DNA of 64,000 bases from an uncultured Acidobacteriota bacterium. Its GTDB lineage: Bacteria; Acidobacteriota; JAQAZP01. The stretch is from positions 1,632,001 to 1,696,000 of the forward strand of contig CAWIIB010000001.1 in assembly GCA_963836075.1 (NCBI GenBank), written 5' to 3'. The translations under genes were made by a program, and so were the position numbers. A model generated the notes under the pieces. That model was given only the letters and a program-made list of their open reading frames with translations, was not told the origin of the DNA and did not search any database. Of the stretch, positions 2 through 18,853 are shown piece after piece; position 1 is the first letter of the stretch; the number at the start of each line of letters is the position of its first letter.

Positions 2-2833
2 CCCGACTACATCCTGCTGGTGGGCGACAGCGACACCATCCCCCACTGGGTGGGCGGCGGTGAAGGCAGCCCGCACACCGATCTGAACTACGTCTGCATG
101 GACGGCTCCACCGACTGGAGCCCGGACATCGCCATCGGCCGCTTTCCGGTGGACGACGGCGCCGAACTGACCGTGATGGTGGACAAGATCCTCAGCTACG
201 ACAACGGCCAGTTCGCCGACGCCAGCTACACCTCCCGGGCCTGCTTCATGGCTTCGGTGGACAACTACACGATCAGTGAGGGGACCCACAACTACGTCAT
301 CGACACCCACATGGAGCCCAACGGGATCGTCTCCGACAAGCTCTACCAGGTGACCTACGGGGCCGACACCCAGGACGTGCGCGACTCGTTCAACGGCGGC
401 CGGCTCTACGGTTGTTACAGCGGCCACGGCGGCACCTACAGCTGGGCCGACGGACCGCCCTTCGAACAGAGCGACATCAACAACCTGACCAACTACCAGA
501 TGTACTCCTGGGTGCTCAGCTTCGCCTGCATCACCGGCACCTACACCGTGGACGAGTGCTTCACCGAGACCTGGGTGCTGGCCGCCGACAAGGGCGCCAT
601 CGCCGCATGGGGCTCTTCGGTGAACAGCTACTGGACCGAAGACGACGTGCTGGAGAGGCGGCTCTTCGACGTGCTCTACTTTGACGACGTGCGCGAGCTG
701 GGCCCGCTCTACAACGCGACCAAGATCGTCTACGCCGGGGAGATGGGCACCGGGCAGACCACCCGCCGCTACTTCGAGATGTACAACCACCTCGGCGACC
801 CGGCGACCTTTATTTCATACGGGATCGCCGCGTTGCGCGTCACCCCGTCCAGCGGCCTGATCGCCGAGGGACCGGAGGGCGGCCCCTTCGCTCCCGCCAG
901 CAAGGTCTACACCCTGAGCAACCTCGCCGATTATCCCATCGACTACACGGTGGCCCTGCAGGGCGGCGAGAGCTGGCTCGACCTCACCGGCGCGCTCAGC
1001 GGCACGCTGAACACCGGCGAAACCGCTGAGGTCACCGTGGCGCTCAACGCCGGGGCGGACACCCTGCCCATCGGCGCCTTCGGCGACACCGTGGTCTTCA
1101 CCAACCTCACCGACGGCATCGGCGACACTACCCGCGAGGTCAGCCTCGAGGTGGGCCGCTACGTCTACCACTCGGCCGACGTGCCCCAGGCGATCAACGA
1201 CAACTCCACCATCACCAGCACCCTCGACGTGGCCGACCACTTCTGCATCGCCGACGTCGATGTCGAGCTGGACATCACCCACACCTACATCGGCGACCTG
1301 ACGGTGAGCCTGACCTCGCCCGAGGGCACCATGGTCACCCTGCACAACCGCAGCGGCGGCAGCAGCGCCAACATCCAGCAGACCTACGACGACGAGGGAA
1401 CCGCCCCTGACGGCCCGGGGGCACTCTCCGACTTCGACTTCGAGTCGCCCATGGGCACCTGGACCCTCACCGTCACCGACAGCGCCGGCGGCGACACCGG
1501 CACGCTCAATGCATGGTCGGTTAAGGTGCTGCCCAGCGGCGACGAGTGCCCGCCGGTGGCCCTGGACGACGAGATCTCCACCGCACCGTTCACCGTGGTC
1601 GACGTGCAGCTGCAGGGCAGCACCATGACCGCCGAACCGCTGGACTTCATCATCACCACCCTGCCGGCCCACGGCACGCTCCGCGACGGCCAGGCGCTGA
1701 TGATCGACACCGTGCCCTACACCCTCACCGGCCCCGACCAGTGGGTGCGCTACGTGCCCGAGTACGGCTACCTCGGTGACGACTCCTTCACCTTCATCAC
1801 CTACGACGGGCAGGACTCGGCCACGGCCACGGTGACCGTGCACATCGGCGAGACCTCCACGATCTACGAGTTCGATCTCGACACCGATCCGGGGTGGATG
1901 ATGAGCGGCGACTGGGCCTTTGGCCAGCCCGCGGGCATCGACGGCGACCCGACCTCCGGCGCCACCGGCACCAACGTCTACGGCAACAACCTCAATGGTG
2001 AATACACTGACGACATGTCCGCCGTCTACCTGACCACCGGCATGATCGACTGCACCGACCTGATCGATGTCAGCGTCAGTTTCCAGCGCTGGCTCGGTGT
2101 CGAGTCGGCCAGCTACGACCACGCGCAGTTCCAGATCAACACCGCCGGCCTGCTCTGGGACACCATCTGGGAGAACGAGGCCAGCACGATGAACGAATCG
2201 AGCTGGACCGAGCAGGTCTACGACATCTCCGGGTACGCCGACGGCCAGGCCAATGTCCGTCTGCGCTGGGTCCTCGGGCCCACCGACGGCTCGGTGACCT
2301 ACCACGGCTGGAACATCGACGACATCGCGATCATCGCCACCGACACATCGGTGGAGCCGCCGCCGGACTGCAACGAGAACGGCGTGCCCGACCTGCAGGA
2401 CATCATCGACGGCACCAGCAGCGACGTCAACGGCAACGGCATCCCCGACGAGTGCGAGGGCGTGACCTCCACCATCGATGCCTCCCTGACCTGCACCCCG
2501 GACAGCGGAGTGCTGCCCTTCACCACCCAGATGGCGGTGGATCTGGCCAACCTGACCACCGAGAACCGCCGCGCCGCGGCCCGCATCAACATGGTGCTGG
2601 CCAACGGCACGCCCTACACCAACTGGCGTGCCGGCTGGACCAACCTCTCCTCCGGGGAGACCTTCAGCACCAGCTGGAACCAGAACCTGCCGGCCCTCGG
2701 CACCCTGGTGGGCAGCAACGTCTTCACCATCGTCGGTGAGGATGTCACTCCGGCGCCCTACAACCAGCCGCCCTTCGCGCCCTCCGGCGACACGGCCACC
2801 GACGACTGCACGGTGACCGCTTCGGCGCCGTAA
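2..2833 (+). CDS. 5'-truncated gingipain-like C25 cysteine peptidase with BACON-like, proprotein-convertase P-domain, Ig/cadherin-like, MAM/adhesin-like and DCNxNG Ca-binding modules, plus the shared C-terminal domain
   Basis: Frame open from nt 2 (PDYILLVGDSDTIP). C25 motifs PDIAIGRFPV, YSGHG (His), SFACITG (Cys), KGAIAAWGSS and YNHLGDPA. P-domain LDITHTYIGDLTVSLTSPEGT. Ends in DVTPAPYNQPP...VTASAP. Confidence 0.85.
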   Translation, partial: PDYILLVGDSDTIPHWVGGGEGSPHTDLNYVCMDGSTDWSPDIAIGRFPVDDGAELTVMVDKILSYDNGQFADASYTSRACFMASVDNYTISEGTHNYVIDTHMEPNGIVSDKLYQVTYGADTQDVRDSFNGGRLYGCYSGHGGTYSWADGPPFEQSDINNLTNYQMYSWVLSFACITGTYTVDECFTETWVLAADKGAIAAWGSSVNSYWTEDDVLERRLFDVLYFDDVRELGPLYNATKIVYAGEMGTGQTTRRYFEMYNHLGDPATFISYGIAALRVTPSSGLIAEGPEGGPFAPASKVYTLSNLADYPIDYTVALQGGESWLDLTGALSGTLNTGETAEVTVALNAGADTLPIGAFGDTVVFTNLTDGIGDTTREVSLEVGRYVYHSADVPQAINDNSTITSTLDVADHFCIADVDVELDITHTYIGDLTVSLTSPEGTMVTLHNRSGGSSANIQQTYDDEGTAPDGPGALSDFDFESPMGTWTLTVTDSAGGDTGTLNAWSVKVLPSGDECPPVALDDEISTAPFTVVDVQLQGSTMTAEPLDFIITTLPAHGTLRDGQALMIDTVPYTLTGPDQWVRYVPEYGYLGDDSFTFITYDGQDSATATVTVHIGETSTIYEFDLDTDPGWMMSGDWAFGQPAGIDGDPTSGATGTNVYGNNLNGEYTDDMSAVYLTTGMIDCTDLIDVSVSFQRWLGVESASYDHAQFQINTAGLLWDTIWENEASTMNESSWTEQVYDISGYADGQANVRLRWVLGPTDGSVTYHGWNIDDIAIIATDTSVEPPPDCNENGVPDLQDIIDGTSSDVNGNGIPDECEGVTSTIDASLTCTPDSGVLPFTTQMAVDLANLTTENRRAAARINMVLANGTPYTNWRAGWTNLSSGETFSTSWNQNLPALGTLVGSNVFTIVGEDVTPAPYNQPPFAPSGDTATDDCTVTASAP

Positions 2834-2872
2834 ACGGCAGCGGCCTCAGGCCGGACCAACAGTCCACAGCAC

Positions 2873-2908: not shown

Positions 2909-2922
2909 CCATTCCAGGTCAG

Positions 2923-3249: not shown

Positions 3250-5001
3250 ATGCTTAAATGGCCCCGAGTTCCTGTCCGGCTGTTACCGTTGCTACTGTGC
3301 GGATTTATTCTCTGCAGCGCCGGCATCGCACATGCCGCACCGCTGTCCGGCACCTACACGATCGGGGGCACCGATCCACACTTCGTCACCATCCAGGACG
3401 CGACTGCAGCCCTCAGCGCCAACGGTGTTGATGGCCCGGTGGTGTTCGACATCCGTACCGGTATTTATGACGGCCCGGTCAGCGTGCCCGATACCGCCGG
3501 TGTATCCGTTGACAACACCATTACCTTTCAGTCAGAGGCCGGGAATGCCAGCGATGTAACGGTCCGTTCAGACAGCGGGGTATGGGTCATCTTCAGTGAT
3601 TACGTCACACTGCAACACCTGACGATCATGCAAGAGCCGTTTGGCACGTCCGATTACGGCCGTGTACTCACCATATCGGGCGACACGGATCACATCAAAA
3701 TCCTCAACAACCGTTTGCATGGCAGAAGGACAACTACAAACATCCGGGACCGCTACGCGGTTCTGTTCAACTGGAAGACATCAACCTATGCGGCCGATGA
3801 TATTCTTATCGAGGGCAACGAAATTCTGTATGGCAGCGTGGGCATCGACTGGGACGGCAGTACCCTGATCACCGGCTCCGAGCTGCGCGTTCGCAACAAC
3901 AGCATTCGTGAGTTCGGCATTAACGGCGTGCAGATACTCAAGGAACCGGCGCTCGAGCTCATCGGCAACGAGATAGCCAGCCGCTCGATCTACCTCAGCT
4001 ATCCCTATGGCGTCATTCTGGAGTTCTGTGACGGACCCATTCTTGTCGACAAGAACCGCATCAGCGTCGATGGGCACATTGGCATGGGTATACGCGAGAG
4101 TCATTCAACCACGGCCGGTCCCGGCTTGATCACAAACAACTTTGTCTCAGTCGATTCTGGCAGGGTCGGCCTCAACATCGACGACTCGGAATACCAGACG
4201 GTCGCGCACAATACCGTCCGATTTACCGGCACGTACCAGTCCGATCCGGCGCTGAAGGTCTACGATGGGACCCACCATCGCCTGCTCAACAACATCTTGA
4301 TGAACACGACCGATGGAGCGGCCATCAGCATAACTTTTCCCGACATCAGTGTCGACCAATGTGACTACAACCTGCTGTATTCGGCGAGTGGCGCCATAGG
4401 TATTACCAGCACTTTCACAACGCACTACGCGCTGGCCGACTGGCAGGCCGCAACCGGGCATGATCTCAACTCGGTCGAGGCCGAGGCACTGTTCGTGAGT
4501 GCGGAAGACTCGCACCTGGTCGCAGGGTCGCCCGGCATCGACCTGGCGCTAACAGGTGAAGTCATCGATGATATCGACTACGAGCTGCGACCTGTGGCTG
4601 CCGATATGGGTGCCGACGAGTATCTGGGCGTGACCCCCACCATCGGCGCCTCCCTGACCTGCACCCCGGACAGCGGCGTGCTGCCCTTCACCACCCAGAT
4701 GGCGGTGGACCTGGCCAACCTGACCACCGAGAACCGCCGCGCCGCGGCCCGCATCAACATGGTGCTGGCCAACGGCACGCCCTACACCAACTGGCGTGCC
4801 GGCTGGACCAACCTCTCCTCCGGTGAGACCTTCAGCACCAGCTGGAACCAGAACCTGCCGGCCCTCGGCACCCTGGTGGGCAGCAACGTCTTCACCATCG
4901 TCGGTGAGGATGTCACTCCGGCGCCCTACAACCAGCCGCCCTTCGCGCCCTCCGGCGACACGGCCACCGACGACTGCACGGTGACCGCTTCGGCGCCGTA
5001 A
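3250..5001 (+). CDS. Secreted right-handed parallel beta-helix protein with the shared C-terminal domain
   Basis: ATG 3250 with GGAG RBS and signal peptide MLKWPR...AGIAHA. N-terminal LSGTYTIGG/GVDGPVVFDI motif, Asn-rich repeats and ADMGADEY. C-terminal domain nearly identical to that of the first ORF. Confidence 0.8.
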   Translation: MLKWPRVPVRLLPLLLCGFILCSAGIAHAAPLSGTYTIGGTDPHFVTIQDATAALSANGVDGPVVFDIRTGIYDGPVSVPDTAGVSVDNTITFQSEAGNASDVTVRSDSGVWVIFSDYVTLQHLTIMQEPFGTSDYGRVLTISGDTDHIKILNNRLHGRRTTTNIRDRYAVLFNWKTSTYAADDILIEGNEILYGSVGIDWDGSTLITGSELRVRNNSIREFGINGVQILKEPALELIGNEIASRSIYLSYPYGVILEFCDGPILVDKNRISVDGHIGMGIRESHSTTAGPGLITNNFVSVDSGRVGLNIDDSEYQTVAHNTVRFTGTYQSDPALKVYDGTHHRLLNNILMNTTDGAAISITFPDISVDQCDYNLLYSASGAIGITSTFTTHYALADWQAATGHDLNSVEAEALFVSAEDSHLVAGSPGIDLALTGEVIDDIDYELRPVAADMGADEYLGVTPTIGASLTCTPDSGVLPFTTQMAVDLANLTTENRRAAARINMVLANGTPYTNWRAGWTNLSSGETFSTSWNQNLPALGTLVGSNVFTIVGEDVTPAPYNQPPFAPSGDTATDDCTVTASAP

Positions 5002-5139
5002 ACGGCAGCGGCCTCAGGCCGGACCGACGGTACACAGCACGGCCCCCCGCCCCGGCAATGGGACGGGGGGCCTTTTCATTTCGAGACTTCTACTTCAGCA
5101 GTGCCTCGACCTCCGTTTTCAGCCGGGCGGCCCCGCCGG
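4626..5139 (+). repeat. Direct repeat copy 2 (~515 bp)
   Basis: Partner of 2458..2972. Confidence 0.95.
5041..5076 (+). terminator. Rho-independent terminator
   Basis: Same GC hairpin plus TTTT as 2873..2908, lying between convergent genes. Confidence 0.8.
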
Positions 5140-6394
5140 GGGCGTAGCCGATGTGCACCTGGCGGACCACCCCGTCGGGGCCGATCACCACCAGGTGGGG
5201 GATGCCCCTGACGCCGAAGGCCCGGGCCGACGAGCCATCGGCATCCAGGGCCACCGGAATGTCCAGCTTCTCCTGCTCCAGGAACGCCGTGACCTTCTCC
5301 CGGCCCTCCATCTGGTTCACCGCGAAGAAAACCACCTCACGGCCCTTCATCTCTTTGGCCAGGGCAGCCACCCCGGGCATGCTCATCACGCAGGGCTTGC
5401 ACCAGGTGGCCCAGAAATCGAGCACCACCACCTTGCCCTTCAGCGACGAGAGACTTACCGGCTCGCCCTCCAGCGGCTGCAGGGTCGCCTCCGGGGCCGG
5501 CTGGTTCAGCGAGGGATGGTCCTGGGCCGGGTCTTTTCCCGGACCGCCCATGCCGCCGCTTGGTGGTGCGAACTGGTCCACCTTTTTCAACTTCTCGTCC
5601 GGTTTGATTTCGAATCGCCCCGCCAGGTCGGGTTCGGCATCCCAGCCGCTGAACCGGAAGTCGAGACGCGGATTCACCATCACCATCCCCTGCTCGTCCG
5701 GTTTCGGTTCTGCGGACGCTTCAGGAGGCGCCGCCGAAAGACACCTCAAAATCCAGGGCTGATCACCGCGGGTCACCCAGACCTCACCCGCGAACGCTCC
5801 GCCGGTCAGCGCAAGATGGTGGCAGGGAATCTCGCCCACCGCTTCCTCGCCCAGCAGGGTCACCTGGTCCGCGTCCCGCAGTGCGCCCACCGTTCCGGCA
5901 GCCAGGCCAAACCCGGCCACCAGCCCGGCCCCGGGGACGATGGGGCCCTGACCCTCATCATCCACGATCAGCCCGGCCATGGTGGCCGGTGATTCCCGGA
6001 GCATGTACTGACCGAAGGGGGGCATCACCATATACTGCTGTTTGCCGTTCTGGATGAAGCTCGGCTCCCGGTCGCCGCCGGCCGGGGTGAAAGCCGCACT
6101 GGCCGGCTGTTCCAGGGCCAGTTCATATTTCAGCGGCTCCATGGGCATCCCGCCGCCAAAGCTTTTGGGCAGTTCGATATGCACCACCATAGAGGCGCTC
6201 ACCGTTTTGAGGCCGCCATAAAAATCGGCGGCCCGCTCCAGGATCACCCGGCCTTCGCCGGCGGTTCCGGGTTCCGTTTCCCCGAACGCGGGCAGCCCCG
6301 GACCGGCGGCCAGCATGAACAGAGCCAGAGCCAAACCGGTGACCCCGCCCCCCCTGAAAGGTGATGTATTTTTTCCGTCCTGTCTCAGATTCAC
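5090..6394 (-). CDS. Exported TlpA/ResA-like thiol-disulfide oxidoreductase with an N-terminal DUF2092/LolA-like domain
   Basis: GKVVVLDFWATWCKPC (CxxC) and cis-Pro loop FGVRGIPHLVVIGPDG. Hydrophobic N-terminus. N-domain assignment is from recall of architecture. Confidence 0.8.
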   Translation of the reverse strand: MNLRQDGKNTSPFRGGGVTGLALALFMLAAGPGLPAFGETEPGTAGEGRVILERAADFYGGLKTVSASMVVHIELPKSFGGGMPMEPLKYELALEQPASAAFTPAGGDREPSFIQNGKQQYMVMPPFGQYMLRESPATMAGLIVDDEGQGPIVPGAGLVAGFGLAAGTVGALRDADQVTLLGEEAVGEIPCHHLALTGGAFAGEVWVTRGDQPWILRCLSAAPPEASAEPKPDEQGMVMVNPRLDFRFSGWDAEPDLAGRFEIKPDEKLKKVDQFAPPSGGMGGPGKDPAQDHPSLNQPAPEATLQPLEGEPVSLSSLKGKVVVLDFWATWCKPCVMSMPGVAALAKEMKGREVVFFAVNQMEGREKVTAFLEQEKLDIPVALDADGSSARAFGVRGIPHLVVIGPDGVVRQVHIGYAPGGAARLKTEVEALLK

Positions 6395-6547: not shown

Positions 6548-8080
6548 TCAGGGGGCGATTCCGGTGACCTGGCAGACAGCACTGCCGGTGTCCCCGGACG
6601 ACAGGTATGGCGGCTGGTTGTATGGCGCCGGTGTCACATCTTCGGCGGTCAGGGTGAAGTAACTGTCGCCCAGCAGGCTGGGCAGCGCCGGGATGTTCTG
6701 GACCCAGCTGTTCAGAAACACTCCGCCGCCGGCAATGTTGGTGTACCCGGCGCGCCAGGAGCTGTAGCTCTGGCCCCCGGCCAGGTCTACGTTGATGCGG
6801 GCGGCCAACCTGCGGGTGGTTTCCGGATAACGGTTGGCCAGCGACACCATCATCTGGCAGCCGAAGGGAAGTGTGCTTGATGCCGGGCTACAGGTGAAGG
6901 AGGTATCCACCGAGCTCCGGGCCGGGTAGTGAAAACCGATGTCCACCGTACCCGCATCGCGGATCTCGTCGGTGCGGGTGGTGAACTGGTCGAGACAGTA
7001 TAGCTGACCGTCCGCGGTCCAGCAGATCGATTCGACAGGCGCGCTGCCGGCATTGCGGCAGGGGCTGTTTTCCGGCTGCCCCGCACTGGTTCGGGACAGA
7101 TAGTAGTCACCTGCCGGCCCGGTGACAAAGTCCGGGTCGCCTGCCAGGTTCCCGGTGCCGGGGTAGCCGCCCTGCACCACCGAGTACTCGATCAGCGGCG
7201 GGTTGTAGAGATACCCGACTTCATGGGAACCGCCCCAGAGAATGCAGTTTTTCATTTGAAGGTCGGCCGTATCGTCCTGGAATACGGAGTCGCCGTAAAT
7301 GAACGAGTTGTTTTCGTAGAAGGTGCAGTTCACCACCGTGGGACTGGCGTAGTAATAGGTTGAGATCGCTCCCCCGCCGTAATCGGCAGATCCACCATTG
7401 TGCTGGTTCTCCACGAAGAGATTGTTGATGACCAGCGGTGCGGAATCCGCACCAGAGCAGCTCACACCACCGCCGCCTCCGATAGAGGCGGAGTTCTGGT
7501 GGAAGAAGTTGTTGGCCACCACCGGCGATCCGGCATCGACGAAAACCGCTCCCCCGTTACCGTCAGCCCAATTGGCGTGGAAATAGTTGCCCATGACCAG
7601 TGTGGAATCGCCACAGCAGATGGCGCCGCCATTTTCATCGGTGAGGTTGTGGAGGAACGCGTTGTCCAGGATGCGGGGGCTCGATCCCGAACAGAGGATC
7701 GCCCCGCCGCCGCAGTCCCACTCCGATTCCGTATATCCGTTCATTATGGTGAAGCCCTGGACTAGCGCTCCCGGCCCCTCACCGCTGGTCAGCAGAAAAG
7801 CCCGGTGAACCACCTTGCCGTAATCACCCTCGCAGTCGATGGTGCAGAAATCGCGGCCGTTCTCCGAGACGACGGTCACCTCCTTGCCGCTGAAGTCGAT
7901 GTCCCGGTTGCCGGGGCCGGTGTACGTGCCGTCGGCCACCAGCACCGTATCACCGTCGGACGCCGCGTCGATGCCGGCCTGGATGGTGGGCTGGCCCGCC
8001 GGGACATGGATCACTTCGGCCGGCGCGGAGGCGGGCAGCAGCAGGATTATCAGGGCAGTGAAAGCGATCCACCTGTTCAT
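6548..8080 (-). CDS. Secreted pectin-lyase-fold/beta-helix repeat protein with the shared C-terminal domain
   Basis: ATG 8080 with AGGAG RBS and signal peptide MNRWIAF...ASAPA. IHVPAGQPTIQAGIDAA...GDTVLVADGTY start and GGAI/FxxN repeats. Divergent C-terminal-domain copy ending VTGIAP. Confidence 0.8.
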   Translation of the reverse strand: MNRWIAFTALIILLLPASAPAEVIHVPAGQPTIQAGIDAASDGDTVLVADGTYTGPGNRDIDFSGKEVTVVSENGRDFCTIDCEGDYGKVVHRAFLLTSGEGPGALVQGFTIMNGYTESEWDCGGGAILCSGSSPRILDNAFLHNLTDENGGAICCGDSTLVMGNYFHANWADGNGGAVFVDAGSPVVANNFFHQNSASIGGGGGVSCSGADSAPLVINNLFVENQHNGGSADYGGGAISTYYYASPTVVNCTFYENNSFIYGDSVFQDDTADLQMKNCILWGGSHEVGYLYNPPLIEYSVVQGGYPGTGNLAGDPDFVTGPAGDYYLSRTSAGQPENSPCRNAGSAPVESICWTADGQLYCLDQFTTRTDEIRDAGTVDIGFHYPARSSVDTSFTCSPASSTLPFGCQMMVSLANRYPETTRRLAARINVDLAGGQSYSSWRAGYTNIAGGGVFLNSWVQNIPALPSLLGDSYFTLTAEDVTPAPYNQPPYLSSGDTGSAVCQVTGIAP

Positions 8081-9335: not shown

Positions 9336-9406
9336 CCCGGCCCCCGTGGGACACTTTGGCGACGAGGTGGTCTAAACCGGCGAAAGGAACAGTGCATTCC
9401 TGCGCA

Positions 9407-9533
9407 TGTCATTGCGAGCCCCCGACCCGCGGGGGACGCGGGAAGTCAGAGGAAGAAACACCGTTCTTAGGTAAACGTCCCCATTTTTTGGTGATCGCCG
9501 CGTCGTCGGCTACGCCGACTCCTCGCGATGACA
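9407..9533. repeat. REP/RPE-like palindromic element
   Basis: Ends TGTCATTGCGAG ... CTCGCGATGACA (11/12 inverted) with an internal GTCGGC-TAC-GCCGAC hairpin. Confidence 0.6.
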
Positions 9534-9660
9534 AGAGGGTCCTGTTCCTTGAGAGGGGCACCATACCCCTTCATTTACCATTGACTGGGGCGCAGCAGTT
9601 CCCTAATCTTTCGCATCCGTTAAACTGGATTTATAGTCTGCGGCAGGGGTGCAATACAGA

Positions 9661-11121
9661 ATGAACTACAAATCCATCGCCCATGTCATGGGCAAATTGA
9701 TGGTGATCACCGGCGCCACCATGTTGTTGCCGGTGATCTGCACCTTCTTCTACCCGGGAGAGGGCGATCTCTTCGCCCTGCTGCTTTCCACTCTCATCGT
9801 CACCGGTGCGGGGCTGCCCTTTTGGTGGTTTTTCCGCCGTCACGATGAACTGAACATCCGCGACGGGTTCTTCATCGCCGTGGCCGGCTGGACCCTGATC
9901 TCCTCGGTATCGGCGCTGCCCTTCATGATCCACGGCAGCATCCCCTCGTTCACCGACGGCTTTTTCGAGATGATGTCCGGCTACACCACCAGCGGGGCCA
10001 CCATCCTCACCGACATCGAAGTGGTGCCCCACGGGCTGCTCTTCTGGCGCAGCCAGACCCACCTGCTGGGCGGAATGGGCTTTCTGACCCTGACCATCAT
10101 CTTCCTGCCCCACGGTATGGGCGGCCTGCGTATTTTCCGGGCCGAGTCGAGCCCGGGGCAGGTCATCACCAAAGAAAAGTTTCTGCCCCGCAACCGGGAC
10201 ACCATGATCTGGCTCTGGGGCATCTACCTCGGGCTGAACCTGCTGCAGACAACGCTGATGTGTCTTGGCGGAATGAGCCTTTTCGATTCGCTGTGCCATG
10301 CTTTCGGCACGGTCTCCACATCCGGGTATTCGACCCACAACGCCAGCGTGGGTTACTACAACAGCGCCTATATCGACTGGGTGATCATCATCTTCATGGT
10401 CCTCGGCGGGATGACCTTCATGCTCTTCTACCACGGCCTGAAGGGCAACTGGCGGGAAATTCGGATCAACACCGAGCTGCGCTGGTATGCCGGCTTCCTG
10501 CTCTTCTTCTGTCTCACGGTGGCCCTGCTGCTGTGGGTCAACGGGACCTATGACGGCCCGCTGGACTCGCTGCGCTACGCCAGCTTCCAGGTGGTGTCGC
10601 TGCTCACCACCACCGGCTTCACCACCGCGGACTACGAGCTGTGGCCCCAGTCGACGCAGATGTTTCTCTATGCCGTCTGCTTCATCGGCGCCTGCGCCGG
10701 GTCCACCACCAGCGGCATCAAGGTCGTGCACTACGTGCTGATCTGGAAGTTCATGGTGGCCTCGATCAAGAAGATCTTCTTCCAGCCCCTGGCGGTGACC
10801 AGCATCCGGCTGAACCGGCGTCCGGTGGAACCGGCCATCGTCAACCTGGCCGTTTGCTACTTCATCGTCAACATCTTCCTCGTGCTGGGCGGGGGCTGTT
10901 TCATGGTGCTGGTGGACGACATGGATTTCACCACCGCCATGAGCTCGGTGATCGCCACGCTGATGAACATCGGTCCGGGGTTCGGCGAAGTTGGGCCCTC
11001 GCATAATTACGCCCAGATATCGGCGGTGGGAAAGTGGTTCCTCTCCTGGCTGATGCTGGTGGGACGGCTGGAGATGTTCTCGGCGCTGGTGATCTTCTAC
11101 CCCTCGTTCTGGCGGAAATAA
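9661..11121 (+). CDS. trkH: Trk system potassium uptake membrane protein
   Basis: FFEMMSGYTTSGAT, STSGYS, TTTGF, IGACAGSTTSGIK, NIGPGFG and MLVGRLE pore-loop motifs in a multi-TM protein. Confidence 0.95.
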   Translation: MNYKSIAHVMGKLMVITGATMLLPVICTFFYPGEGDLFALLLSTLIVTGAGLPFWWFFRRHDELNIRDGFFIAVAGWTLISSVSALPFMIHGSIPSFTDGFFEMMSGYTTSGATILTDIEVVPHGLLFWRSQTHLLGGMGFLTLTIIFLPHGMGGLRIFRAESSPGQVITKEKFLPRNRDTMIWLWGIYLGLNLLQTTLMCLGGMSLFDSLCHAFGTVSTSGYSTHNASVGYYNSAYIDWVIIIFMVLGGMTFMLFYHGLKGNWREIRINTELRWYAGFLLFFCLTVALLLWVNGTYDGPLDSLRYASFQVVSLLTTTGFTTADYELWPQSTQMFLYAVCFIGACAGSTTSGIKVVHYVLIWKFMVASIKKIFFQPLAVTSIRLNRRPVEPAIVNLAVCYFIVNIFLVLGGGCFMVLVDDMDFTTAMSSVIATLMNIGPGFGEVGPSHNYAQISAVGKWFLSWLMLVGRLEMFSALVIFYPSFWRK

Positions 11122-11123
11122 AC

Positions 11124-11270
11124 TAGAAGTGGTTTCATAACCTCAGCTGTGGTTCGAGAGCGAGGCAACGGCTGACGAAAAGCGCAGCATCCTTTTGTGG
11201 TATGTGAGCATTTTAAGGAGGCCGGCAACGCAGCTATCGGGCCTCAGGCGAGATTCCGGGGCCGCTTCTA
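11124..11270. mobile_element. Possible MITE-like element (147 bp) between trkH and trkA
   Basis: Imperfect terminal inverted repeats TAGAAGTGGTTTCATAACCTC / revcomp TAGAAGCGGCCCCGGAATCTC, TA at both ends. The right end overlaps the trkA stop codon. Confidence 0.4.
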
Positions 11271-12668
11271 CAGGAACAGGCGCTGCAGTTCCTTGAGGCC
11301 CAGGGAGGTGCAGATGGCGATGGCCCGGTCGCCGGCCCGGATGTGCGTGCTGCCCACGGCGGTCTCCCAACCGCCACCCTGGCGCACGCCGCCGATAATG
11401 ACCCTCTCCTTGAGAATATCCATCTGGTTCAGCGGCTTGCGGGTGATCGGCGCGTCCGGGCCGGCCACGATCTCCACCAGCTCGGCGTCCAGGCCGTGAA
11501 GGTGGGCCACGGAGAGCAGTTTGCCGCGGCGGATGAACTTGAGGATCTCGTTGGCCGCCAGCACCTTCTTGTTCAGCGCGATATCCGCACCCATGGTGGC
11601 GGCCAGCACCAGGTATTCCTCCTTGTTCACCAGGGCGATGGTCTTGTTGTGCCGGGTGCTGGAGCCGTTGCCCTGCTCCTGCAGCAGGTGTTTGGCCAGC
11701 AGGCAGCTCATGATGTTGGTCTCATTGTCCCAGGTGGCAGTGATGATGGTGTCCATATCCAGCAGGCCGGCCTGGGTCAGCGTGTTGGCGTCGGAGCCGT
11801 CGCCGTGCAGCACCTCGGTGTGCTCCAGCTGCGCTGAGAGTTCCTCGGCCCGGGCCTCGTCCTTCTCGATCAGCCGGACCTCGAAGTCCGCACCCAGCAG
11901 TTCGGCCACCCGGGTGCCCACAAGTCCCCCGCCGAGGATCATCACCCGGTGGTGCTGTTCCTGCACCACGCCGGCCAGCTCCATCAGCTGGGGCAGGTGT
12001 TCCGCGGCCACGAGGATGAAGGCCTGGTCATGGGCCTGCAACTGGAAATCGCCGTCAGGGATGATGGTGGCGATCCCCCGGGCCACGGAGACAATGCGGA
12101 AGGGGAACTCGTTGTACATGCCGGCGATCTCTTTCAGCTGCCGGCCCACGATGGGCGACCCCTCCAGCACCCGCGTGGCCATTACCCGCATCTGACCCTC
12201 AGCAATGTCCACCACCACGTTCCCGGTGCGCAGCTTGATCAGCCGCAGGATTTCCTGGGCGGTCAGTTCCTCGGGGTGGATCACCATGTCGATTTTCATG
12301 TCGGGGGCGGTGATGATCGAGTTCTGCATGCCGAATTCCAGAGACCGCACCCGGGCGATCTTGGTCGGGATACCCACCCGGTCCGCGATAACCGACGACA
12401 GCATGTTCACCGCATCGTTGTCGGTCACCGCGATCATGTAGTCCATGGCCCGCGCTCCAGCCTCCTGCCAGCACTTGAAGCGCATGGCATCGCCCTGGAT
12501 CAGCCGGGCATCCACCTCGCCGTCGGCGCGGCGCAGCAAGGCGGCGTCCTGCTCCACGGCCGTGATGGCGTGGCCCTCATGAGCCAGGCGCTTGGTCAGG
12601 TAGTAGCCCACTCCGCCAAGCCCGAGGATCATGATGTTCTCTGATTTCCGGTCTTTCTTCCCGAACAT
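11268..12668 (-). CDS. trkA: Trk system potassium uptake NAD-binding subunit (two RCK domains)
   Basis: Two Rossmann motifs (ILGLGGVG, ILGGGLVG), AVTDNDAVN, HGDGSD and TrkA_C repeats. 466 aa. Confidence 0.93.
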   Translation of the reverse strand: MFGKKDRKSENIMILGLGGVGYYLTKRLAHEGHAITAVEQDAALLRRADGEVDARLIQGDAMRFKCWQEAGARAMDYMIAVTDNDAVNMLSSVIADRVGIPTKIARVRSLEFGMQNSIITAPDMKIDMVIHPEELTAQEILRLIKLRTGNVVVDIAEGQMRVMATRVLEGSPIVGRQLKEIAGMYNEFPFRIVSVARGIATIIPDGDFQLQAHDQAFILVAAEHLPQLMELAGVVQEQHHRVMILGGGLVGTRVAELLGADFEVRLIEKDEARAEELSAQLEHTEVLHGDGSDANTLTQAGLLDMDTIITATWDNETNIMSCLLAKHLLQEQGNGSSTRHNKTIALVNKEEYLVLAATMGADIALNKKVLAANEILKFIRRGKLLSVAHLHGLDAELVEIVAGPDAPITRKPLNQMDILKERVIIGGVRQGGGWETAVGSTHIRAGDRAIAICTSLGLKELQRLFL

Positions 12669-12775: not shown

Positions 12776-12786
12776 AGGGGGGAAAG

Positions 12787-15700
12787 CTATGGTGAGACGC
12801 CGGTCACCGTGACGGTGTCGGTGTCGGTATCTCCCGAGAGAGCATATGGCGGCTGGTTGTAGGGGGCCGGCGTGACGTCAACACCGATGAGGGTGAAGAC
12901 ATTGCTGCCCACCAGTGTGGGCAGGCCGGGGAAGTTCTGGTTCCAGACCTTGGTGAAGACTTCACCGGAGCTGAGGTTGGTCCAGCCGGCTCGCCAGTTG
13001 CCATACGAGTTGCCGCTGGCGATCACCACGTCGATCCGGCCGGCGGCCCGGCGGTTCTCGGTGGTCAGGTTGGTCAACCGCGTGATGAACTGCGTAGTGA
13101 AGGGCAGGGTCGCCGTGTCGGGATTGGCGTCGATGAACACGCCCACCGTGTCGGTGATGACCCCGGGGTCGCAGGAGAACGCGCTGAGGGTCACGTCATC
13201 GATGTTCCAGCCGCAGTACTGCCAGGAACTGTCGGTGGTCCCCATGGTCCAGCGGAGGTAGACCGTGGCCTCGCCGTCGGCAAAGGCCGAGAGGTCGTAC
13301 TCCTCCAGAACCCATGAACCATCAGCGACTTCGGCACTATTCGACCAGAGGGTGTCCCAACTGCTGCCGTTGGTGCTGATGCGCAGGTAGGCATGGTCAT
13401 AGAGCGGCTGCTCCACACCGAGCCAGCGGCGGAAGCTGAGCACCACGCCCTGCTGGGCCGAACAGTCGATGGCCGGAGTGGTGAGATGGGTTTCGCTGAG
13501 GTTGTTCTCGTAGTCGCCGGCAAGGTTGTAGCCGTAAACGTTGTTTCCGGTGTAACCGCTGGTGGGGTCGGGGTTGCCGTACTGCCCGCCGCCGCCGGTG
13601 GGCTGACCCCAGGCCCAGAGGCCCGCGGTGGTCCAACCGGGGTTGGTGTCCATGTTGGCGGAGTAGAAAGTGGTCAACTCTCCCACCACGGCGCTGTAAT
13701 AGAGGGCCGGGGCGCTGCTGGGGCTGTAGACCATGCCGCTCACATCACCCTCGGCACTGACATAGAACTCCGGCGTATCGGTGCAGCTCGGTGCGGGCAG
13801 CGTGGCATCAAAGAGATCGCTGCCAGCCGGCACCAGGGCCGTGGTCAGCCATGAGCCGCCATCGTAGCGGTAGTGCAGAGTGCCGCTGCCCGGAACATAC
13901 GATTCCCCGGTGGCCGTGATCAGCACGCTGAAGGTGGTGGGGACGTCCGGCGGGATCACCTCGGGTGCTCCGTCCGGCAGGAAAATCGAGATGTAACCCG
14001 GGTCGGGGTCGGTCGGGGCGGCGTCGTTGGTCAGCATCAGCTCGTCCACCACGATCCGGCCCTCGTCAGCTCCCCAGGAGGGGCCGCAGTCAAAACGAAC
14101 CGCCACGATGTCGCTGAGGTCAAGACCCGAGTTGTTGTTCAGGAAATCGGTGAGGCGGAGGCGGATAACCTCCATCTCGTTGTGCCAGCCGCCGGAGCGG
14201 TCGTACGGCTGCTCGAGACCGCCGCCGTTAGCGCCGATGTTGATCGAGCTGCTGGTCCCGCTGCCGTCGCGCAGGGTCACGCTGAAGTCGAGGTCGCCCA
14301 TGACAACCAGGGTGTTCGGGTGACGGGTGCCCTGGGCACCGCGGAAAGAGAGGTAGAGGTCGTCGCTGAAGTCCTGCTGGGAGGCTACGACGCCCCACTC
14401 GATGTAGCGGTTGCTGCCGTTCCAGTCGAAGACCACGCCTCTGCTGTCGTCAGAGGAGGATGCCTGGGTGGCGCCGTTGAACGGGTCGGAGGTGGTCCAC
14501 GCGAAATCAGAGTTGTTGTCATCCAGCCGGCCTTCGGTGAGGTTGGTCACGGTGTAGGCTACCGATCCGCCGGAGCTGCTGGTGCTGGTGGATGTCTGGG
14601 ACTGGAAGTCGTCGATGAAGAAGTTGCCGGTGTCACCACCGTTGCGGTATTCGTGGGTCACCACCACGCAGGGATTCGAAGTGTCGACACCGATGGGGCT
14701 GAACTTCTCATACTGGCGCCAGAGGAAGTCCCGGGCCGGGATGTTGCCGTTGACATAGTGCTTGACCAGGGGCAGGAAGTAGCCCAGCTGGATCTGGTGG
14801 GTCACCGTCTCGCCGATGGAGCAGGGGCCGGTGAAATAGGAACTGCCGGTGCCATCGTGGAACCAGCCGTGGCCGGTGCCCTGCACCACGGTGGACTGCC
14901 GGTAGCGGGTGGCCCGGTCGTGGAGGTGGAAGGTCTGGCACAGGTCGCAGCTGGCCGAACCATTGACATCGGAGTCGCCGGCAGCGGTCCAGAGGTGGTA
15001 GTTCGCCCCGTGGGGATCCGCGTTGTTGGTCTTGAGGAAGTCGGTGGGCAGCATGCTGCTCAGCAGCACCACGTCTTCGAGAACGAACTCCGAGGGCGTG
15101 TAGCCGTCCACGATCCGGTCGTAGGCCCGGGTGATCCCCTCGCCGCCGCGGCTGTGGCCGATCCAGGTGATGGCCGAGGAATCGATGTGCCCGTTGAGAA
15201 CCCCGCCGCCGATGGTGCCCTGGTTGGCCAGGATATAGTCGGTGTTGGTCAGGGTGGTGGTGGAGGCGGTTTCGATCCCCGGGCCGGTGTTGTTCTCGTG
15301 GGACATCACGATGTAGCCATAGGAGGCCAGGTGGTAGCCGATGTGGTCATACCACGTGTAATCGTGCCCGTTGCCGTGGCTGATCACCACCAGGGGCAAG
15401 AGGCCCATGGAGGCGATGTCGGTGGGATAGTAGGTGTCCTGACCGAGCCACGATCCACCGCTGTAAATGATCTCGGTCACCGCCAGCGGCCCGGACTGGG
15501 TGGTGTCGTGCACCGCGTAGAGCCCCGCCTCGTCGCCGAGACCGTCGATATAGTCCACGTCGTCCAGCACGCCGTTCTGGTTCATGTCCAGCACGATGTC
15601 GTATCCCACGCCGAGACCGGTACCGGCACTGGCGTTGAGGGTGTTGGCGGCAGCCACCAACCAGTCATTGGCCTGGATCGAGGCGCTGCTGAAGGTCACG

Positions 15701-16059
15701 GTGAGCGGTCCGCCGGCCACATCGGTCAAGCCGGGGTTTGACGCCCACTGGGCAGCGTCCTGTGCATCAACCACAAAGATGTCCGCCGTATCCCCGACGA
15801 TGCCCGGGAACCGGAAGGGGTCGATGGCCACACGAACGGTGGAATTGACGTTGAAAGCCTTGACGTATTCGAAGTACGGATACTGGGCCAGGGAGTTCCC
15901 GGCCAGCTCGGTCTGCCGCTCAGGCGGCGGCACGGCGGCAGAGGCCGGCGCCGCGGCAAGGGCCAGGACGAGCAGCGCAAGAAACAGTGCCGGCAGGCGG
16001 CGCTGCCGATGAGACGTTCCGGAATTCGAATGACCACGGATCTTCTTGGATAGTGACAC
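12787..16059 (-). CDS. Secreted alpha/beta-hydrolase (chlorophyllase/cutinase-like) with extra Ig-like and MAM-like modules and the shared C-terminal domain
   Basis: GTG start with GAGGAG RBS and signal peptide. VVISHGNG, nucleophile elbow GHSRGG, candidate Asp (GDSDV) and His (GHGWFH). Ends VTGVSP. Confidence 0.8.
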   Translation of the reverse strand: MSLSKKIRGHSNSGTSHRQRRLPALFLALLVLALAAAPASAAVPPPERQTELAGNSLAQYPYFEYVKAFNVNSTVRVAIDPFRFPGIVGDTADIFVVDAQDAAQWASNPGLTDVAGGPLTVTFSSASIQANDWLVAAANTLNASAGTGLGVGYDIVLDMNQNGVLDDVDYIDGLGDEAGLYAVHDTTQSGPLAVTEIIYSGGSWLGQDTYYPTDIASMGLLPLVVISHGNGHDYTWYDHIGYHLASYGYIVMSHENNTGPGIETASTTTLTNTDYILANQGTIGGGVLNGHIDSSAITWIGHSRGGEGITRAYDRIVDGYTPSEFVLEDVVLLSSMLPTDFLKTNNADPHGANYHLWTAAGDSDVNGSASCDLCQTFHLHDRATRYRQSTVVQGTGHGWFHDGTGSSYFTGPCSIGETVTHQIQLGYFLPLVKHYVNGNIPARDFLWRQYEKFSPIGVDTSNPCVVVTHEYRNGGDTGNFFIDDFQSQTSTSTSSSGGSVAYTVTNLTEGRLDDNNSDFAWTTSDPFNGATQASSSDDSRGVVFDWNGSNRYIEWGVVASQQDFSDDLYLSFRGAQGTRHPNTLVVMGDLDFSVTLRDGSGTSSSINIGANGGGLEQPYDRSGGWHNEMEVIRLRLTDFLNNNSGLDLSDIVAVRFDCGPSWGADEGRIVVDELMLTNDAAPTDPDPGYISIFLPDGAPEVIPPDVPTTFSVLITATGESYVPGSGTLHYRYDGGSWLTTALVPAGSDLFDATLPAPSCTDTPEFYVSAEGDVSGMVYSPSSAPALYYSAVVGELTTFYSANMDTNPGWTTAGLWAWGQPTGGGGQYGNPDPTSGYTGNNVYGYNLAGDYENNLSETHLTTPAIDCSAQQGVVLSFRRWLGVEQPLYDHAYLRISTNGSSWDTLWSNSAEVADGSWVLEEYDLSAFADGEATVYLRWTMGTTDSSWQYCGWNIDDVTLSAFSCDPGVITDTVGVFIDANPDTATLPFTTQFITRLTNLTTENRRAAGRIDVVIASGNSYGNWRAGWTNLSSGEVFTKVWNQNFPGLPTLVGSNVFTLIGVDVTPAPYNQPPYALSGDTDTDTVTVTGVSP

Positions 16060-16300: not shown

Positions 16301-16380
16301 ATATAGGTCATTTGCCCACTGGTTTTCCAGTGGAATTTCCGATTCGAGGGTCTTTTATGCAAAATCAGGGGGGAGTCAAC

Positions 16381-16411
16381 CGCCCCCCGGCCGCCGCACG
16401 GCCGGGGGGCG
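16381..16411 (-). terminator. GC-rich hairpin after the hydrolase paralog
   Basis: CGCCCCCCGGCCG-CCGCA-CGGCCGGGGGGCG perfect 13-bp stem. Confidence 0.6.
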
Positions 16412-16420
16412 GGGGGCAAG

Positions 16421-18853
16421 CTATGGCGAAACTCCGGTCACAGTGACGGAGTCGGTGTCGGTGTCTCCCGAGAGAGCATAGGGCGGCTGGTTGTACGGGG
16501 CCGGCGTGACGTCAGCAGCGATGAGGGTGAAGACATTGCTGCCCACCAGTGTGGGCAGGCCGGGGAAGTTCTGGTTCCAGACCTGGGTGAAGACTTCCGA
16601 GGGGTCGAGGTTGGTATAACCGGCCCGCCAGTTGCCAAACGAGTTGCCGCTGGCGATCACCACGTCGATCCGGCCTGCCGCCCGGCGGTTCTGGGTGGTC
16701 AGGTTGGTCAACCGCGCAATGAACTGCGTGGTGAAGGGCAAAACCGCCGTGTCGGGATTGGCATCGATGGACGCAGTCACCGTGTCGATGACGGTTGGCG
16801 GGTCCGTCGGTGACGCATCGTTGGTCAGCATCAGCTCGTCCACCACGATCCGCCCCTCGTTGGCGCCCCAGGAAGGACCGCAATCGAGACGCACCGCCAC
16901 GATGTCGGAGAGATCGAGACCCGAGTTGTTGTGCAGGAAGTCGGTAAGCCTGAGGCGGATCACCTCCATCTCGTTGTGCCAGCCGCCGGACCGGTCGTAT
17001 GGTTGCTCGAGGCCGCCGCCGTAAGCGCCGATGTTGATCGAGCTGCTGGTCCCGCCGCCGTCGCGAAGGGTCACGCTGAAGTTGAGGTCGGTCATCGCCG
17101 CCAGGGTGTTGGGATGCTGGGTGCCCTGTGCGCCGCGGAAGGAGAGGTAGAGGTCGTCACTGAAGTCCTGCTGGGCGGAGATGATGCCCCACTCGATGTA
17201 GCGGTTGCTGCCGGTCCAGCTGAAAACCACGCCTTTGCTGTCGTCGGACGAGGAGGCCTGGGTGGCGCCGTTGAACGGGTCAGACGAAGTCCAGCTGAAA
17301 CTGCTGTTGTTGTCATCCAGGCGACCCTCGGTGAGGTTGTCCACGGTGTAGGTCACCGAGCCGCCCGAGCTGCTGGTGGATGTGGAGGGTTCGCTCTGGA
17401 AGTCGTCGATAAAGAAGTTGCCGCTGGCGCCGCCGTTGCGGTATTCGTGGGTCACCACGACACAGGAGTTGGAGGTGTCCACGCCGATGGGACTGAACTT
17501 CTCGTACTGGCGCCAGAGGAAGTCCCGGGCCGGGATGTTGCCTTCGACATAGTGCTTGACCAGGGGCAGGAAGTAGCCCAGCTGGATCTGGTGGGTCACC
17601 GTCTCGCCGATGGAGCAGGGGCCGGTGAACCAGGAGGTGCCGCCGTTGTCGTGGAACCAGGCGTGGCCGGTGCCCTGCACCACCGTGGACTGCCGGAACG
17701 CGGTGGCCCGGTCGTGGAGGTGGAAGGTCTGGCAGAGGTCGCAGCTGGCCGAGCCGTTGACGTCGGCGTCGCCGGAGGCGGTCCAGAGGTGGTAGTTGGC
17801 GCCATGGGGGTTCGAGCTGGCGGTCTTGAGAAAGTCGGTGGGCAGCATGCTGCTCAACAGCACCACGTCCTCGAGGGTGAACGCCGACGGGGTGTAGCCG
17901 TCCACTATCCGGTCATAGGCCCGCGTGATCCCTTCGCCGCCGCGGCTGTGGCCGATCCAGGTGATGGCCGAGGAATCGATATGCCCGTTGAGCACCCCGC
18001 CGCCGATGGAGCCCTGGTTGGCGATGATGTAGTCGGTGTTGGTCAAGGTGGTGGTGGAGGCGGTCTCGATGCCCGGCGAGGTGTTGTTCTGGTGGGACAT
18101 CACGATGTAGCCGTACGAGGCCAGGTGGTAGCCGATGTGATCATACCAGGTGTAGTTGTGCCCGTTGCCGTGGCTGATCACCACCAGCGGCAGCTGACCC
18201 ATTGAGGCAATGTCGGTGGGATAGTAGGTATCCTGGCCCAGCCAGGTCCCGCCGCTGTAAATGATCTCGGTCACGGCCAGCGGGCCGGACTGGGTGGTGT
18301 CGTGCACCATGTAGAGGCCGGCCTCATCACCCAGGCCGTCAATGTAATCCGGGTCGTCCAGCATGCCGTTCTGGTTCATGTCCAGCACGATGTCGTAGCC
18401 CACACCGAGGCCGATGCCGGCATCGGCGCTGAGGGTGCTGGCAGCGGCAAGCAGCCAGGTATTGGCCTGGATCGAGGTGCCGCTGAAGGTTACGGTGAGC
18501 GGTCCGCCGGTCACGTCGGTCAGCCCCGGGCTGGAGGCCCACTGGGCCGCATTCTTGGACACCACAAGATAGATGTCCGCCGTCTGCCCCACCACCCCGG
18601 GGAAACGGAAGGGGTCGATGGCCGCACGAACCACGGCGTTGACGTTGAATGCCTTGACGTACTCGAAATACGGATACTGGAGAATGCTGTTTCCGGCCAG
18701 CTCGGTCTGCCGCTCCGGCGGCGGCACGGCGGCTGAGGCCGGTGCTGCGGCAAGGCCCAGCACCAGCAGCGCAAGAAACAGTGCCGGCAGGCGGCGCTGC
18801 CGATGGTACGCTCCGGAATTCAAATGACCACGGATCTTCTTGGATAGTGACAC
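16421..18853 (-). CDS. Secreted alpha/beta-hydrolase paralog (810 aa) with the shared C-terminal domain
   Basis: GTG 18853 aligns with the paralog start and RBS. GHSRGG present. Highly similar to 12787..16059 but lacks its ~280-aa insert. Confidence 0.85.
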   Translation of the reverse strand: MSLSKKIRGHLNSGAYHRQRRLPALFLALLVLGLAAAPASAAVPPPERQTELAGNSILQYPYFEYVKAFNVNAVVRAAIDPFRFPGVVGQTADIYLVVSKNAAQWASSPGLTDVTGGPLTVTFSGTSIQANTWLLAAASTLSADAGIGLGVGYDIVLDMNQNGMLDDPDYIDGLGDEAGLYMVHDTTQSGPLAVTEIIYSGGTWLGQDTYYPTDIASMGQLPLVVISHGNGHNYTWYDHIGYHLASYGYIVMSHQNNTSPGIETASTTTLTNTDYIIANQGSIGGGVLNGHIDSSAITWIGHSRGGEGITRAYDRIVDGYTPSAFTLEDVVLLSSMLPTDFLKTASSNPHGANYHLWTASGDADVNGSASCDLCQTFHLHDRATAFRQSTVVQGTGHAWFHDNGGTSWFTGPCSIGETVTHQIQLGYFLPLVKHYVEGNIPARDFLWRQYEKFSPIGVDTSNSCVVVTHEYRNGGASGNFFIDDFQSEPSTSTSSSGGSVTYTVDNLTEGRLDDNNSSFSWTSSDPFNGATQASSSDDSKGVVFSWTGSNRYIEWGIISAQQDFSDDLYLSFRGAQGTQHPNTLAAMTDLNFSVTLRDGGGTSSSINIGAYGGGLEQPYDRSGGWHNEMEVIRLRLTDFLHNNSGLDLSDIVAVRLDCGPSWGANEGRIVVDELMLTNDASPTDPPTVIDTVTASIDANPDTAVLPFTTQFIARLTNLTTQNRRAAGRIDVVIASGNSFGNWRAGYTNLDPSEVFTQVWNQNFPGLPTLVGSNVFTLIAADVTPAPYNQPPYALSGDTDTDSVTVTGVSP

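Follow-up and report, generated by a model that had tools for sequence, protein, structure and literature searches.

The window considered here, by which the whole 64,000-nt stretch of DNA analyzed is meant (C1:1632001-1696000 of a 6.23-Mb assembly of an uncultured Acidobacteriota bacterium, comprising 10 contigs and 94.7% complete), carries at its left end five genes whose products all terminate in one and the same domain of about 122 residues, and it is this C-terminal domain (CTD), together with the question of what it might be for, that is the subject of what follows. All five of the open reading frames (ORFs) singled out by an earlier, sequence-only reading are present where it had placed them, and a scan of the window proteins against Pfam and NCBIfam, together with alignment and profile searches, led to the following assignments:

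2..2833, plus strand: carrier 1, C25 peptidase followed by a P-domain, a MAM/choice-of-anchor-J-like region, a short dockerin-like motif and the CTD; 5'-truncated by the window, the full ORF being 1295 aa with its start upstream of the window
2465..2833, plus strand: CTD copy 1, the last 122 codons and the stop (profile E 3e-72)
3250..5001, plus strand: carrier 2, signal peptide, right-handed beta-helix (Beta_helix/NosD) and the CTD
4633..5001, plus strand: CTD copy 2 (alignment and profile), its DNA 97% identical to that of copy 1 over 300 nt
6548..8080, minus strand: carrier 3, signal peptide, beta-helix and the CTD; the ORF extends to 8128, with a signal-peptide-like start at 8080
6548..6916, minus strand: CTD copy 3 (alignment and profile)
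12787..16059, minus strand: carrier 4, signal peptide, alpha/beta-hydrolase-like passenger, choice-of-anchor J domain (aa 828-957) and the CTD
12787..13155, minus strand: CTD copy 4, the copy used for the structure model (pLDDT 96.8)
16421..18853, minus strand: carrier 5, a paralogue of carrier 4 without the choice-of-anchor J module, ending in the CTD
16421..16789, minus strand: CTD copy 5 (alignment and profile)

The five tails align over ~122 aa with one single-residue gap and 48 invariant columns, and each of them matches the five-tail profile at E values of 1e-64 to 1e-72, which is far beyond chance, so that the claim of one C-terminal domain being shared by five exported proteins stands. 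The motifs that had been picked out by eye (LPF, LxN, RRxAxRI, WRAG[WY]TN, WxQNxPxLxxLxG, FT, DVTPAPYNQPP[FY]xxSGDT and VT...P with P as the last residue) all fall within the invariant columns; the tails do indeed lack any hydrophobic helix or basic tail, and none of them closes on an aromatic residue, the end being ..AP or ..SP. Signal-peptide-like N-termini are visible in the four complete window genes, for which Sec-type signal peptides had been proposed, and in the full 1295-aa ORF of gene 1.

A census of the genome, in which the five-tail profile was run against all stop-to-stop ORFs of at least 60 aa at i-E < 1e-5 (the units being ORFs and not gene calls), returned 219 copies of the domain in 218 ORFs, 194 of the 219 ending no more than three residues from the end of the ORF. 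Upon inspection, the non-terminal matches proved to be mostly copies cut by frameshifts, several of them broken inside the PYNQPP stretch; of four such ORFs (C1_1395731_1397584_-, C4_45019_45624_+, C9_397815_398558_- and C1_2015376_2018357_+), two break inside DVTPAPYNQPP and the other two directly behind SGDT and behind the NWR motif, respectively, and these cut copies in ORFs of contigs C1, C4 and C9 are either assembly errors of the record or decaying copies. True internal copies number two of the 219, one ORF having a second, divergent internal copy and one more having an internal copy, and “strictly terminal” therefore describes the great majority of the copies, most of the exceptions being frameshift artefacts, but not literally all of them. 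The notion of the domain being “always single-copy”, on the other hand, has to be given up: besides the genome ORF with a second copy, two copies are present in 9 of the top 150 database representatives, 7 of these 9 having them as adjacent pairs that end at the C-terminus. As for frequent internal or tandem occurrence, which had been named as a sign that the domain is no terminal tag, tandem pairs thus do exist among the relatives, whereas internal placement is rare in this genome, and the domain sits at the C-terminus in 142 of the same 150 representatives.

Across the 180 cleanly terminal genome copies the median pairwise identity is 48%, and the consensus of the genome copies reads ..C.P.SGTLPF...RR.AGRIDV.LA.G....NWRAG.TN....W.Q.IPALG..G.N.FTL.AEDVTPAPYNQPPYPP.GDTD...CTVTG.AP, in which the DVTPAPYNQPP stretch is the best-conserved segment. 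The last residue is P in 158 of the 180 terminal copies, and 15 positions are conserved at 90% or more in a set of 42 diverse copies. Two Cys columns co-vary over the 180 mutually related copies (both Cys in 124, neither in 26, only one in 30), and such co-presence fits an oxidising compartment. Upstream of the tag the 30 preceding residues are of ordinary composition, with no shared motif, linker or cleavage motif, and no partner, protease or cleavage site was found for the DVTPAPYNQPP loop, which had been proposed to serve in recognition or processing.

The tail of gene 4, modelled by AlphaFold2 with the alignment of 42 diverse copies, comes out as an 8-strand, immunoglobulin (Ig)-like beta-sandwich (mean pLDDT 96.8, pTM 0.87, as read from the model summary), in which the DVTPAPYNQPPY..SGDT segment is an ordered loop joining the last two strands. 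The structure search returned likeness at the level of the fold only, to RbmA (an FnIII-like matrix protein of V. cholerae), CARDB and transglutaminase domains; the nearest solved folds among the Foldseek/VIA matches include accessory domains of glycosidases and domains resembling carbohydrate-binding modules (CBMs), the look-alikes in the ESM Atlas are CARDB-like clusters, weak at 0.87, and no chain of a type IX secretion system (T9SS) CTD is among the listed Foldseek or VIA matches, though a likeness to T9SS CTDs may exist all the same.

At the level of sequence, the absence of any described family, as had been suspected, is confirmed as far as Pfam, NCBIfam and PDB sequence searches reach. 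No Pfam or NCBIfam model covers the tails of the five window proteins; no NCBIfam model lies over the tail in 74 carriers; the 42 isolated domains, searched against Pfam at E <= 10, gave no consistent family and five singleton matches; and the PDB sequence search with the domain profile had 0 matches at E <= 10. CARDB (PF07705) matches 0 of the 42 domains at E <= 10, and PPC (PF04151) has no match on the domain. Profile-profile comparison by hhalign, with the 42-copy profile on one side and templates that are shallow on the other, gave a 7% probability over 26 columns against 16 T9SS tails of the FlgD_ig type (orthologues only), 0.7% against 18 dockerin tails and 0.2% against 10 PKD tails. A strong match to a described family, which would have dissolved the whole case, was thus not found, the part of that objection that survives being that the fold appears to be an ordinary CARDB/fibronectin type III-like sandwich, with weak likeness only. 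Nor does a description of the domain appear in the portions of the literature returned by full-text searches for Acidobacteriota C-terminal sorting, choice-of-anchor, APYNQPP and type IX. The domain is, in short, a new family of a known kind of feature, and its reader was not found.

Such a fold invites the suggestion that the domain is a CBM- or adhesin-like module binding a substrate or particle, i.e., that it tethers secreted proteins to some environmental polymer or mineral in the sediment and not to the cell. A beta-sandwich with conserved Trp, Tyr, Asn, Gln, Arg and Asp positions would suit this role, as would the CBM-like, glycosidase-accessory and CARDB-like neighbours in fold space, the existence of tandem copies, and the sediment, salt-marsh or soil metagenome labels of the DNA runs that contain the region. 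CBM and CARDB domains are, however, commonly internal or N-terminal, whereas this one is internal in 2 of 219 copies; even a threshold as loose as E <= 10 brings up no CBM or CARDB model for it; and a single module attached to ~200 very different proteins (proteases, deiminases, FG-GAP, beta-helix and FGE-sulfatase-like ones) fits a common cellular address better, which makes the environmental tether an improbable explanation.

By a hydrophobicity and charge heuristic applied to stop-to-stop ORFs, a signal-peptide-like N-terminus is present in 121 of the 177 carriers of at least 300 aa, as against 757 of 5798 other long ORFs, and in the genome as a whole the tag sits, as expected, at the extreme C-terminus of a large and heterogeneous set of proteins with such N-termini. 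The cargo consists of typical surface or secreted proteins, and its catalogue, for which 69 of the 177 long carriers were scanned, includes 14 FG-GAP and 16 beta-helix/NosD/PMP-like passengers, peptidases of the S8 (5), C25 (2) and M6 (1) families, and, further, a Porphyromonas-type deiminase (PAD), LVIVD, BNR/sortilin, SBBP, FGE-sulfatase and choice-of-anchor B/J passengers, while 14 of the 69 are without any Pfam family.

Two kinds of passenger can be followed outside of the lineage, and in both the tag occupies the position that known sorting or anchoring modules take in the homologues. For the hydrolase passenger of gene 5, counterparts with 61-87% identity (the query itself apart) are known from several other lineages; among the 120 best homologues of this passenger, 7 carry the domain, 20 end in a barrel resembling outer-membrane proteins (OMPs), 9 in a hydrophobic C-terminal anchor, and 10 stop directly behind the GWNIDD module, at the very point from which gene 4 runs on into the tag, with RTX, vWA or CARDB among the other endings. 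Of 120 homologues of the PAD passenger, 3 carry the domain, and others end in FlgD_ig (e.g., in Eisenbacteria), Dockerin_1 (e.g., in Zixibacteria), Por_Secre_tail or PKD.

Some observations on these passengers deserve to be put on record in their own right. The ~650-aa hydrolase-like passenger of genes 4 and 5, labelled “choice-of-anchor X” in one source, shows an unusual degree of conservation, its named relatives coming from Planctomycetota, a deltaproteobacterial worm symbiont, a Mesorhizobium relative and Thermoanaerobaculia. Between them these relatives have six or more kinds of C-terminal end, one of which is a Cys-rich hydrophobic tail (..CIPC..LLLL..WYCCC[FY]RK..). Elsewhere in the genome, two tandem beta-helix proteins resembling the carriers (L138:2960-4279 and L138:4292-5902, within G000:C1:1131816-1134758) end in a Dockerin_1-type tail, ..DFDR.GVIDG.DL.IFSFYFGA.., from which it follows that, in this genome, passengers of one and the same kind may bear either the tag or at least one other C-terminal module. 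Several tag-free C25 peptidases (C9_723300_726503_-, C1_1561828_1568115_-, C1_949686_953417_+ and C9_2866364_2869102_-) share a short tail of the form ..[DN]F.AY......G....A.G.F, and the FG-GAP-bearing hydrolase paralogue P0160 ends alike; the tail may represent the last blade of an FG-GAP propeller, or else some other C-terminal motif.

The five window tails should not be mistaken for five independent cases, as the tails of genes 1 and 2 are near-identical owing to a recent segmental duplication, which DNA self-comparison places as follows:

2445..2972 and 4613-5139, no strand assigned: the two arms of the duplication, by which the 3' end of the tag (97% identity), a GC-rich, hairpin-like stretch downstream of it and a remnant matching the 3' end of the minus-strand redoxin gene (78%) were copied

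The similarity runs on downstream of the tag (2876-2972 versus 5043-5139), and the arrangement illustrates how recombination can carry the tag from one gene to a neighbour; at the scale of the genome, carriers are clustered, 64 of 213 neighbouring carrier pairs lying within 2 kb. This raises a deflationary possibility, namely that the domain has no addressing role whatsoever and is a structural cap, a folding helper or a PPC-like module protecting against proteases, spread by 3'-end duplication and recombination. The copying of 3' ends between neighbours, downstream DNA included, the clustering and the generic fold all agree with it. Against it, purifying selection holds ~15 positions all but constant even though the paralogues share only 48% identity, the fixed surface loop and fixed C-terminal residue point to a shared interaction, non-enzymes bear the domain as well as enzymes, homologues carry sorting or anchoring modules at the same position, and two carriers (proteins 45 and 60) already have a PPC domain upstream besides the tag. 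A mere cap is accordingly judged very improbable.

The taxonomic reach of the domain is narrow. A search of 1.84 billion cluster representatives finds it in 512 proteins at E <= 1e-3, a number that falls to 389 when the threshold is set at E <= 1e-30. The class to which this organism belongs consists of three species-representative genomes, all of one genus, and all three carry the domain (150, 139 and 113 matches, at most 150 candidates having been scored in each); in a wider draw of 301 genomes of the phylum these are the only 3 with the domain, plus one 22-bit match elsewhere, so the suspicion of lineage specificity is upheld, the remaining 298 Acidobacteriota genomes being without it save for that one match. 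Of 38 genomes representing other families within the phylum, 0 contain it, and a five-copy pattern scan over 185,579 species found it in two metagenome-assembled genome records only, one of them titled Acidobacteriota bacterium. The habitat labels cited above are those of sequencing runs, in which the region's shares are mostly small, and no RNA runs are among the public runs listed as containing the region.

Whatever reads the tag did not reveal itself. Models of the T9SS core (SprA as TIGR04189 and PF14349, PorV as NF033710, GldM as TIGR03517) gave 0 matches in the genome, the SprA and GldM searches being of unproven sensitivity as their controls matched no control genome, and the searches having covered SprA, PorV, PorU and GldM, with GldK, GldL and GldN not searched genome-wide. 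The best PorU match, at 201.7 bits against a cut-off of 420, is a tag-free C25 protein of 937 aa whose gene neighbours (pyruvate:ferredoxin oxidoreductase, radical SAM, AAA) are unrelated. The type A T9SS CTD (TIGR04183) has 0 matches in the whole genome and none in the three class genomes, being sporadic in 3 of 41 relatives; exosortase (PF09721) has 0 genome matches, and PEP-CTERM (TIGR02595) has one, elsewhere than on the tag. Families recurring within 2.5 kb of carriers are FG-GAP, beta-helix (some dockerin-tailed), Ser/Thr kinases, sigma-54 activators and radical-SAM enzymes, none of these recurrent neighbours being a candidate reader, and a search for a repeat-rich scaffold by self-BLAST found no repeats in the strict run and mostly weak, possibly compositional self-matches in the relaxed one.

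Two candidates were followed further and dropped. The PorU-like C25 gene was rejected as the reader on account of its unrelated neighbours and of C25 peptidases being present in 19 of the 38 tag-free genomes. The other came from the three secretin-domain matches of the genome, where secretin operons of the type II or type IV-pilus kind are present:

L149:7992-10496 (G000:C1:2169991-2172495, outside the window), strand not given: secretin with a cohesin-like end (TPR, FecR_C, Secretin_N, Secretin and PF00963, the last at 33.5 bits)

Its operon encodes an extracytoplasmic function (ECF) sigma factor, an anti-sigma factor, the type II secretion proteins T2SS-F and T2SS-E (the latter with an MshEN domain), PilM, PilN and a pseudopilin. 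ORFs matching the cohesin-like tail, many of them about as long as a secretin, turn up in 21 of 38 other Acidobacteriota genomes, so that this tail may be common to the phylum; its distribution does not follow that of the tag, and it was rejected on that ground.

These results bear on the comparison with the T9SS, which the sequence-only reading had drawn from gingipain-like and beta-helix cargo: the likeness of cargo and position was confirmed, and that of the machinery was not. Taken literally, the comparison would make the domain an export signal akin to a T9SS CTD, a lineage-specific outer-membrane translocon recognising the folded domain and a PorU-like C25 peptidase removing it and perhaps attaching the cargo to a surface polymer. 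The terminal position and conserved free end would be explained in this way, and so would cargo that reads as the classic T9SS spectrum (C25, PAD, S8, M6, FG-GAP, beta-helix), with PAD homologues in Eisenbacteria and other lineages carrying FlgD_ig/Por_Secre_tail CTDs at the very same place; moreover, the genus has an enlarged complement of C25 peptidases (25, 15 and 15 matches in its three genomes versus 0-7 in 38 other Acidobacteriota), and the genome's best PorU match is itself free of the tag. However, neither of the two SprA models, PorV nor GldM found a counterpart, the PorU score is far under its cut-off, half of the tag-free genomes have C25 peptidases all the same, the tag-free C25 gene lies amid unrelated ones, the domain has no likeness to T9SS CTDs by hmmscan and next to none by hhalign, and both tandem copies and such high conservation would be unusual for a transient signal. 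An export signal of this sort is hence considered unlikely, if still a serious contender.

One fold, a fixed free end, hundreds of unrelated exported-type carriers and the interchange of anchors: what has been observed of the anatomy, copy number, terminal position, exported cargo, lineage restriction and tag swapping is the anatomy of a C-terminal address module, and the domain is quite probably an address or anchoring tag of some kind. The more specific proposal, put forward tentatively and with slightly less than even confidence, is that it is a lineage-specific surface-sorting tag retained on the mature protein as a docking module. A Sec signal peptide would bring the passenger to the periplasm, where the last ~122 residues would fold into the 8-strand sandwich, probably tied in most copies by a disulfide linking the first and last strands; the module would then stay on the mature protein after export and hold the passenger at the cell surface by binding one shared receptor, be it an envelope glycan or an outer-membrane protein, presumably via its conserved residues of polar or aromatic character (RRxAGRID, NWRAGxTN, WxQxIP) together with the ordered DVTPAPYNQPPYPPSGDT loop. 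The near-invariant terminal ..AP may shield the free end from exopeptidases, many carboxypeptidases releasing a C-terminal proline poorly. Retained docking is favoured because of the high conservation, the presumed polar/aromatic surface with its loop, the probable disulfide and the terminal proline, and also because relatives have tandem copies, no cleavage motif is seen and no dedicated translocon was found.

Several points weigh against this proposal. No receptor, partner or processing enzyme was identified, surface location and retention resting on inference, and a strict C-terminal position with a conserved free end is just as much a hallmark of true secretion signals. The signal-peptide heuristic is a crude one, the Cys covariation statistic is inflated by the relatedness of the paralogues, and the negative searches, apart from their silent SprA and GldM controls, are limited by the sensitivity of hidden Markov models (HMMs) and by a genome that is 94.7% complete. 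Its wider weight is curbed by the narrow reach, three genomes and about 500 protein clusters limiting the general importance of the tag.

The boldest version, doubtful rather than plainly unlikely, would have an undescribed sorting system operating in a class-level branch of Acidobacteriota, with ~200 proteins per genome addressed to the surface and a reader of no known family (translocon, sortase or receptor) recognising the DVTPAPYNQPPY loop and the free ..AP end, as one of several independent C-terminal address systems in the phylum. C-terminal sorting domains define whole secretion and display systems (T9SS, sortases, exosortases), and each newly recognised tag has led to machinery; a tag on 218 ORFs for which no known reader was found would imply either a known export route with a new docking principle or an unknown sorting machine. 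On a more practical note, the tag offers a simple rule for predicting which proteins an uncultured, protease- and hydrolase-rich lineage of the sediment secretes or displays on its surface, and, as a compact and confidently folded module, it is a candidate display handle.

The surroundings of the window carriers add a few observations. The N-termini of genes 4 and 5 (window 15900-16059 and 18700-18853) have a long basic signal-peptide n-region with ..HRQRRLPALFLALL.., which may loosely recall a twin-arginine motif. Between two carriers, at 5090-6394 on the minus strand, lies an exported fusion of DUF2092 (LolA-like) with a Redoxin/AhpC-TSA thioredoxin fold, and the placement of such a periplasmic thiol-disulfide enzyme next to disulfide-bearing cargo may be a coincidence. 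The stretch between carriers at 8247-12668 holds ordinary genes (a RelA/SpoT-domain protein, TrkH and TrkA) with no evident link to the tag.

Among known systems, the T9SS CTDs (type A, TIGR04183/PF18962 Por_Secre_tail, and FlgD_ig, PF13860) are among the closest in general design: they, too, are folded Ig-like beta-sandwiches that form the very end of Sec-exported proteins from many families, a genome encoding tens to hundreds of such carriers, and the types of cargo are the same. They are shorter, at about 70-100 aa versus about 122 aa here, and the present domain differs from them in that neither HMM nor profile comparison relates the two (over 5 window proteins, 69 further carriers and 42 domains), in being much better conserved, in ending in ..AP where the FlgD_ig-type tails compared end in ..LLK, and in belonging to a genome in which no T9SS core was detected and to a phylum whose sample barely uses T9SS CTDs.

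Dockerins (Dockerin_1, PF00404), whether cellulosomal or not, are alike in being small, mostly C-terminal modules on many unrelated secreted proteins, with docking to a common receptor being what is proposed, by analogy, for the present domain; PAD homologues in Zixibacteria carry them at the same place, and this genome itself has at least eight dockerin-type tails on similar beta-helix passengers. The dockerin fold is, however, a duplicated calcium-binding loop-helix motif, whereas this domain is an all-beta sandwich in the model and matches no dockerin model, nor was a lineage-specific cohesin-like partner found, the cohesin-like domain of the secretin being widespread in the phylum.

PEP-CTERM/exosortase, LPXTG and GlyGly-CTERM signals likewise mark the C-termini of many unrelated exported proteins, as this tag does in its restricted lineage, but a folded 122-aa domain ending in ..CTVTGxAP is not PEP-CTERM's motif, transmembrane helix and basic tail. 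Choice-of-anchor domains, defined in NCBIfam through their varied C-terminal anchors, sit directly upstream of the tag. Autotransporter and OMP barrels are unlike it, the tag being a 122-aa sandwich of the soluble type with its characteristic final proline, even if homologues of the hydrolase do end in barrels. In its proposed function, then, the domain would be comparable to dockerins, to SLH domains or to that half of a T9SS CTD which does the anchoring.

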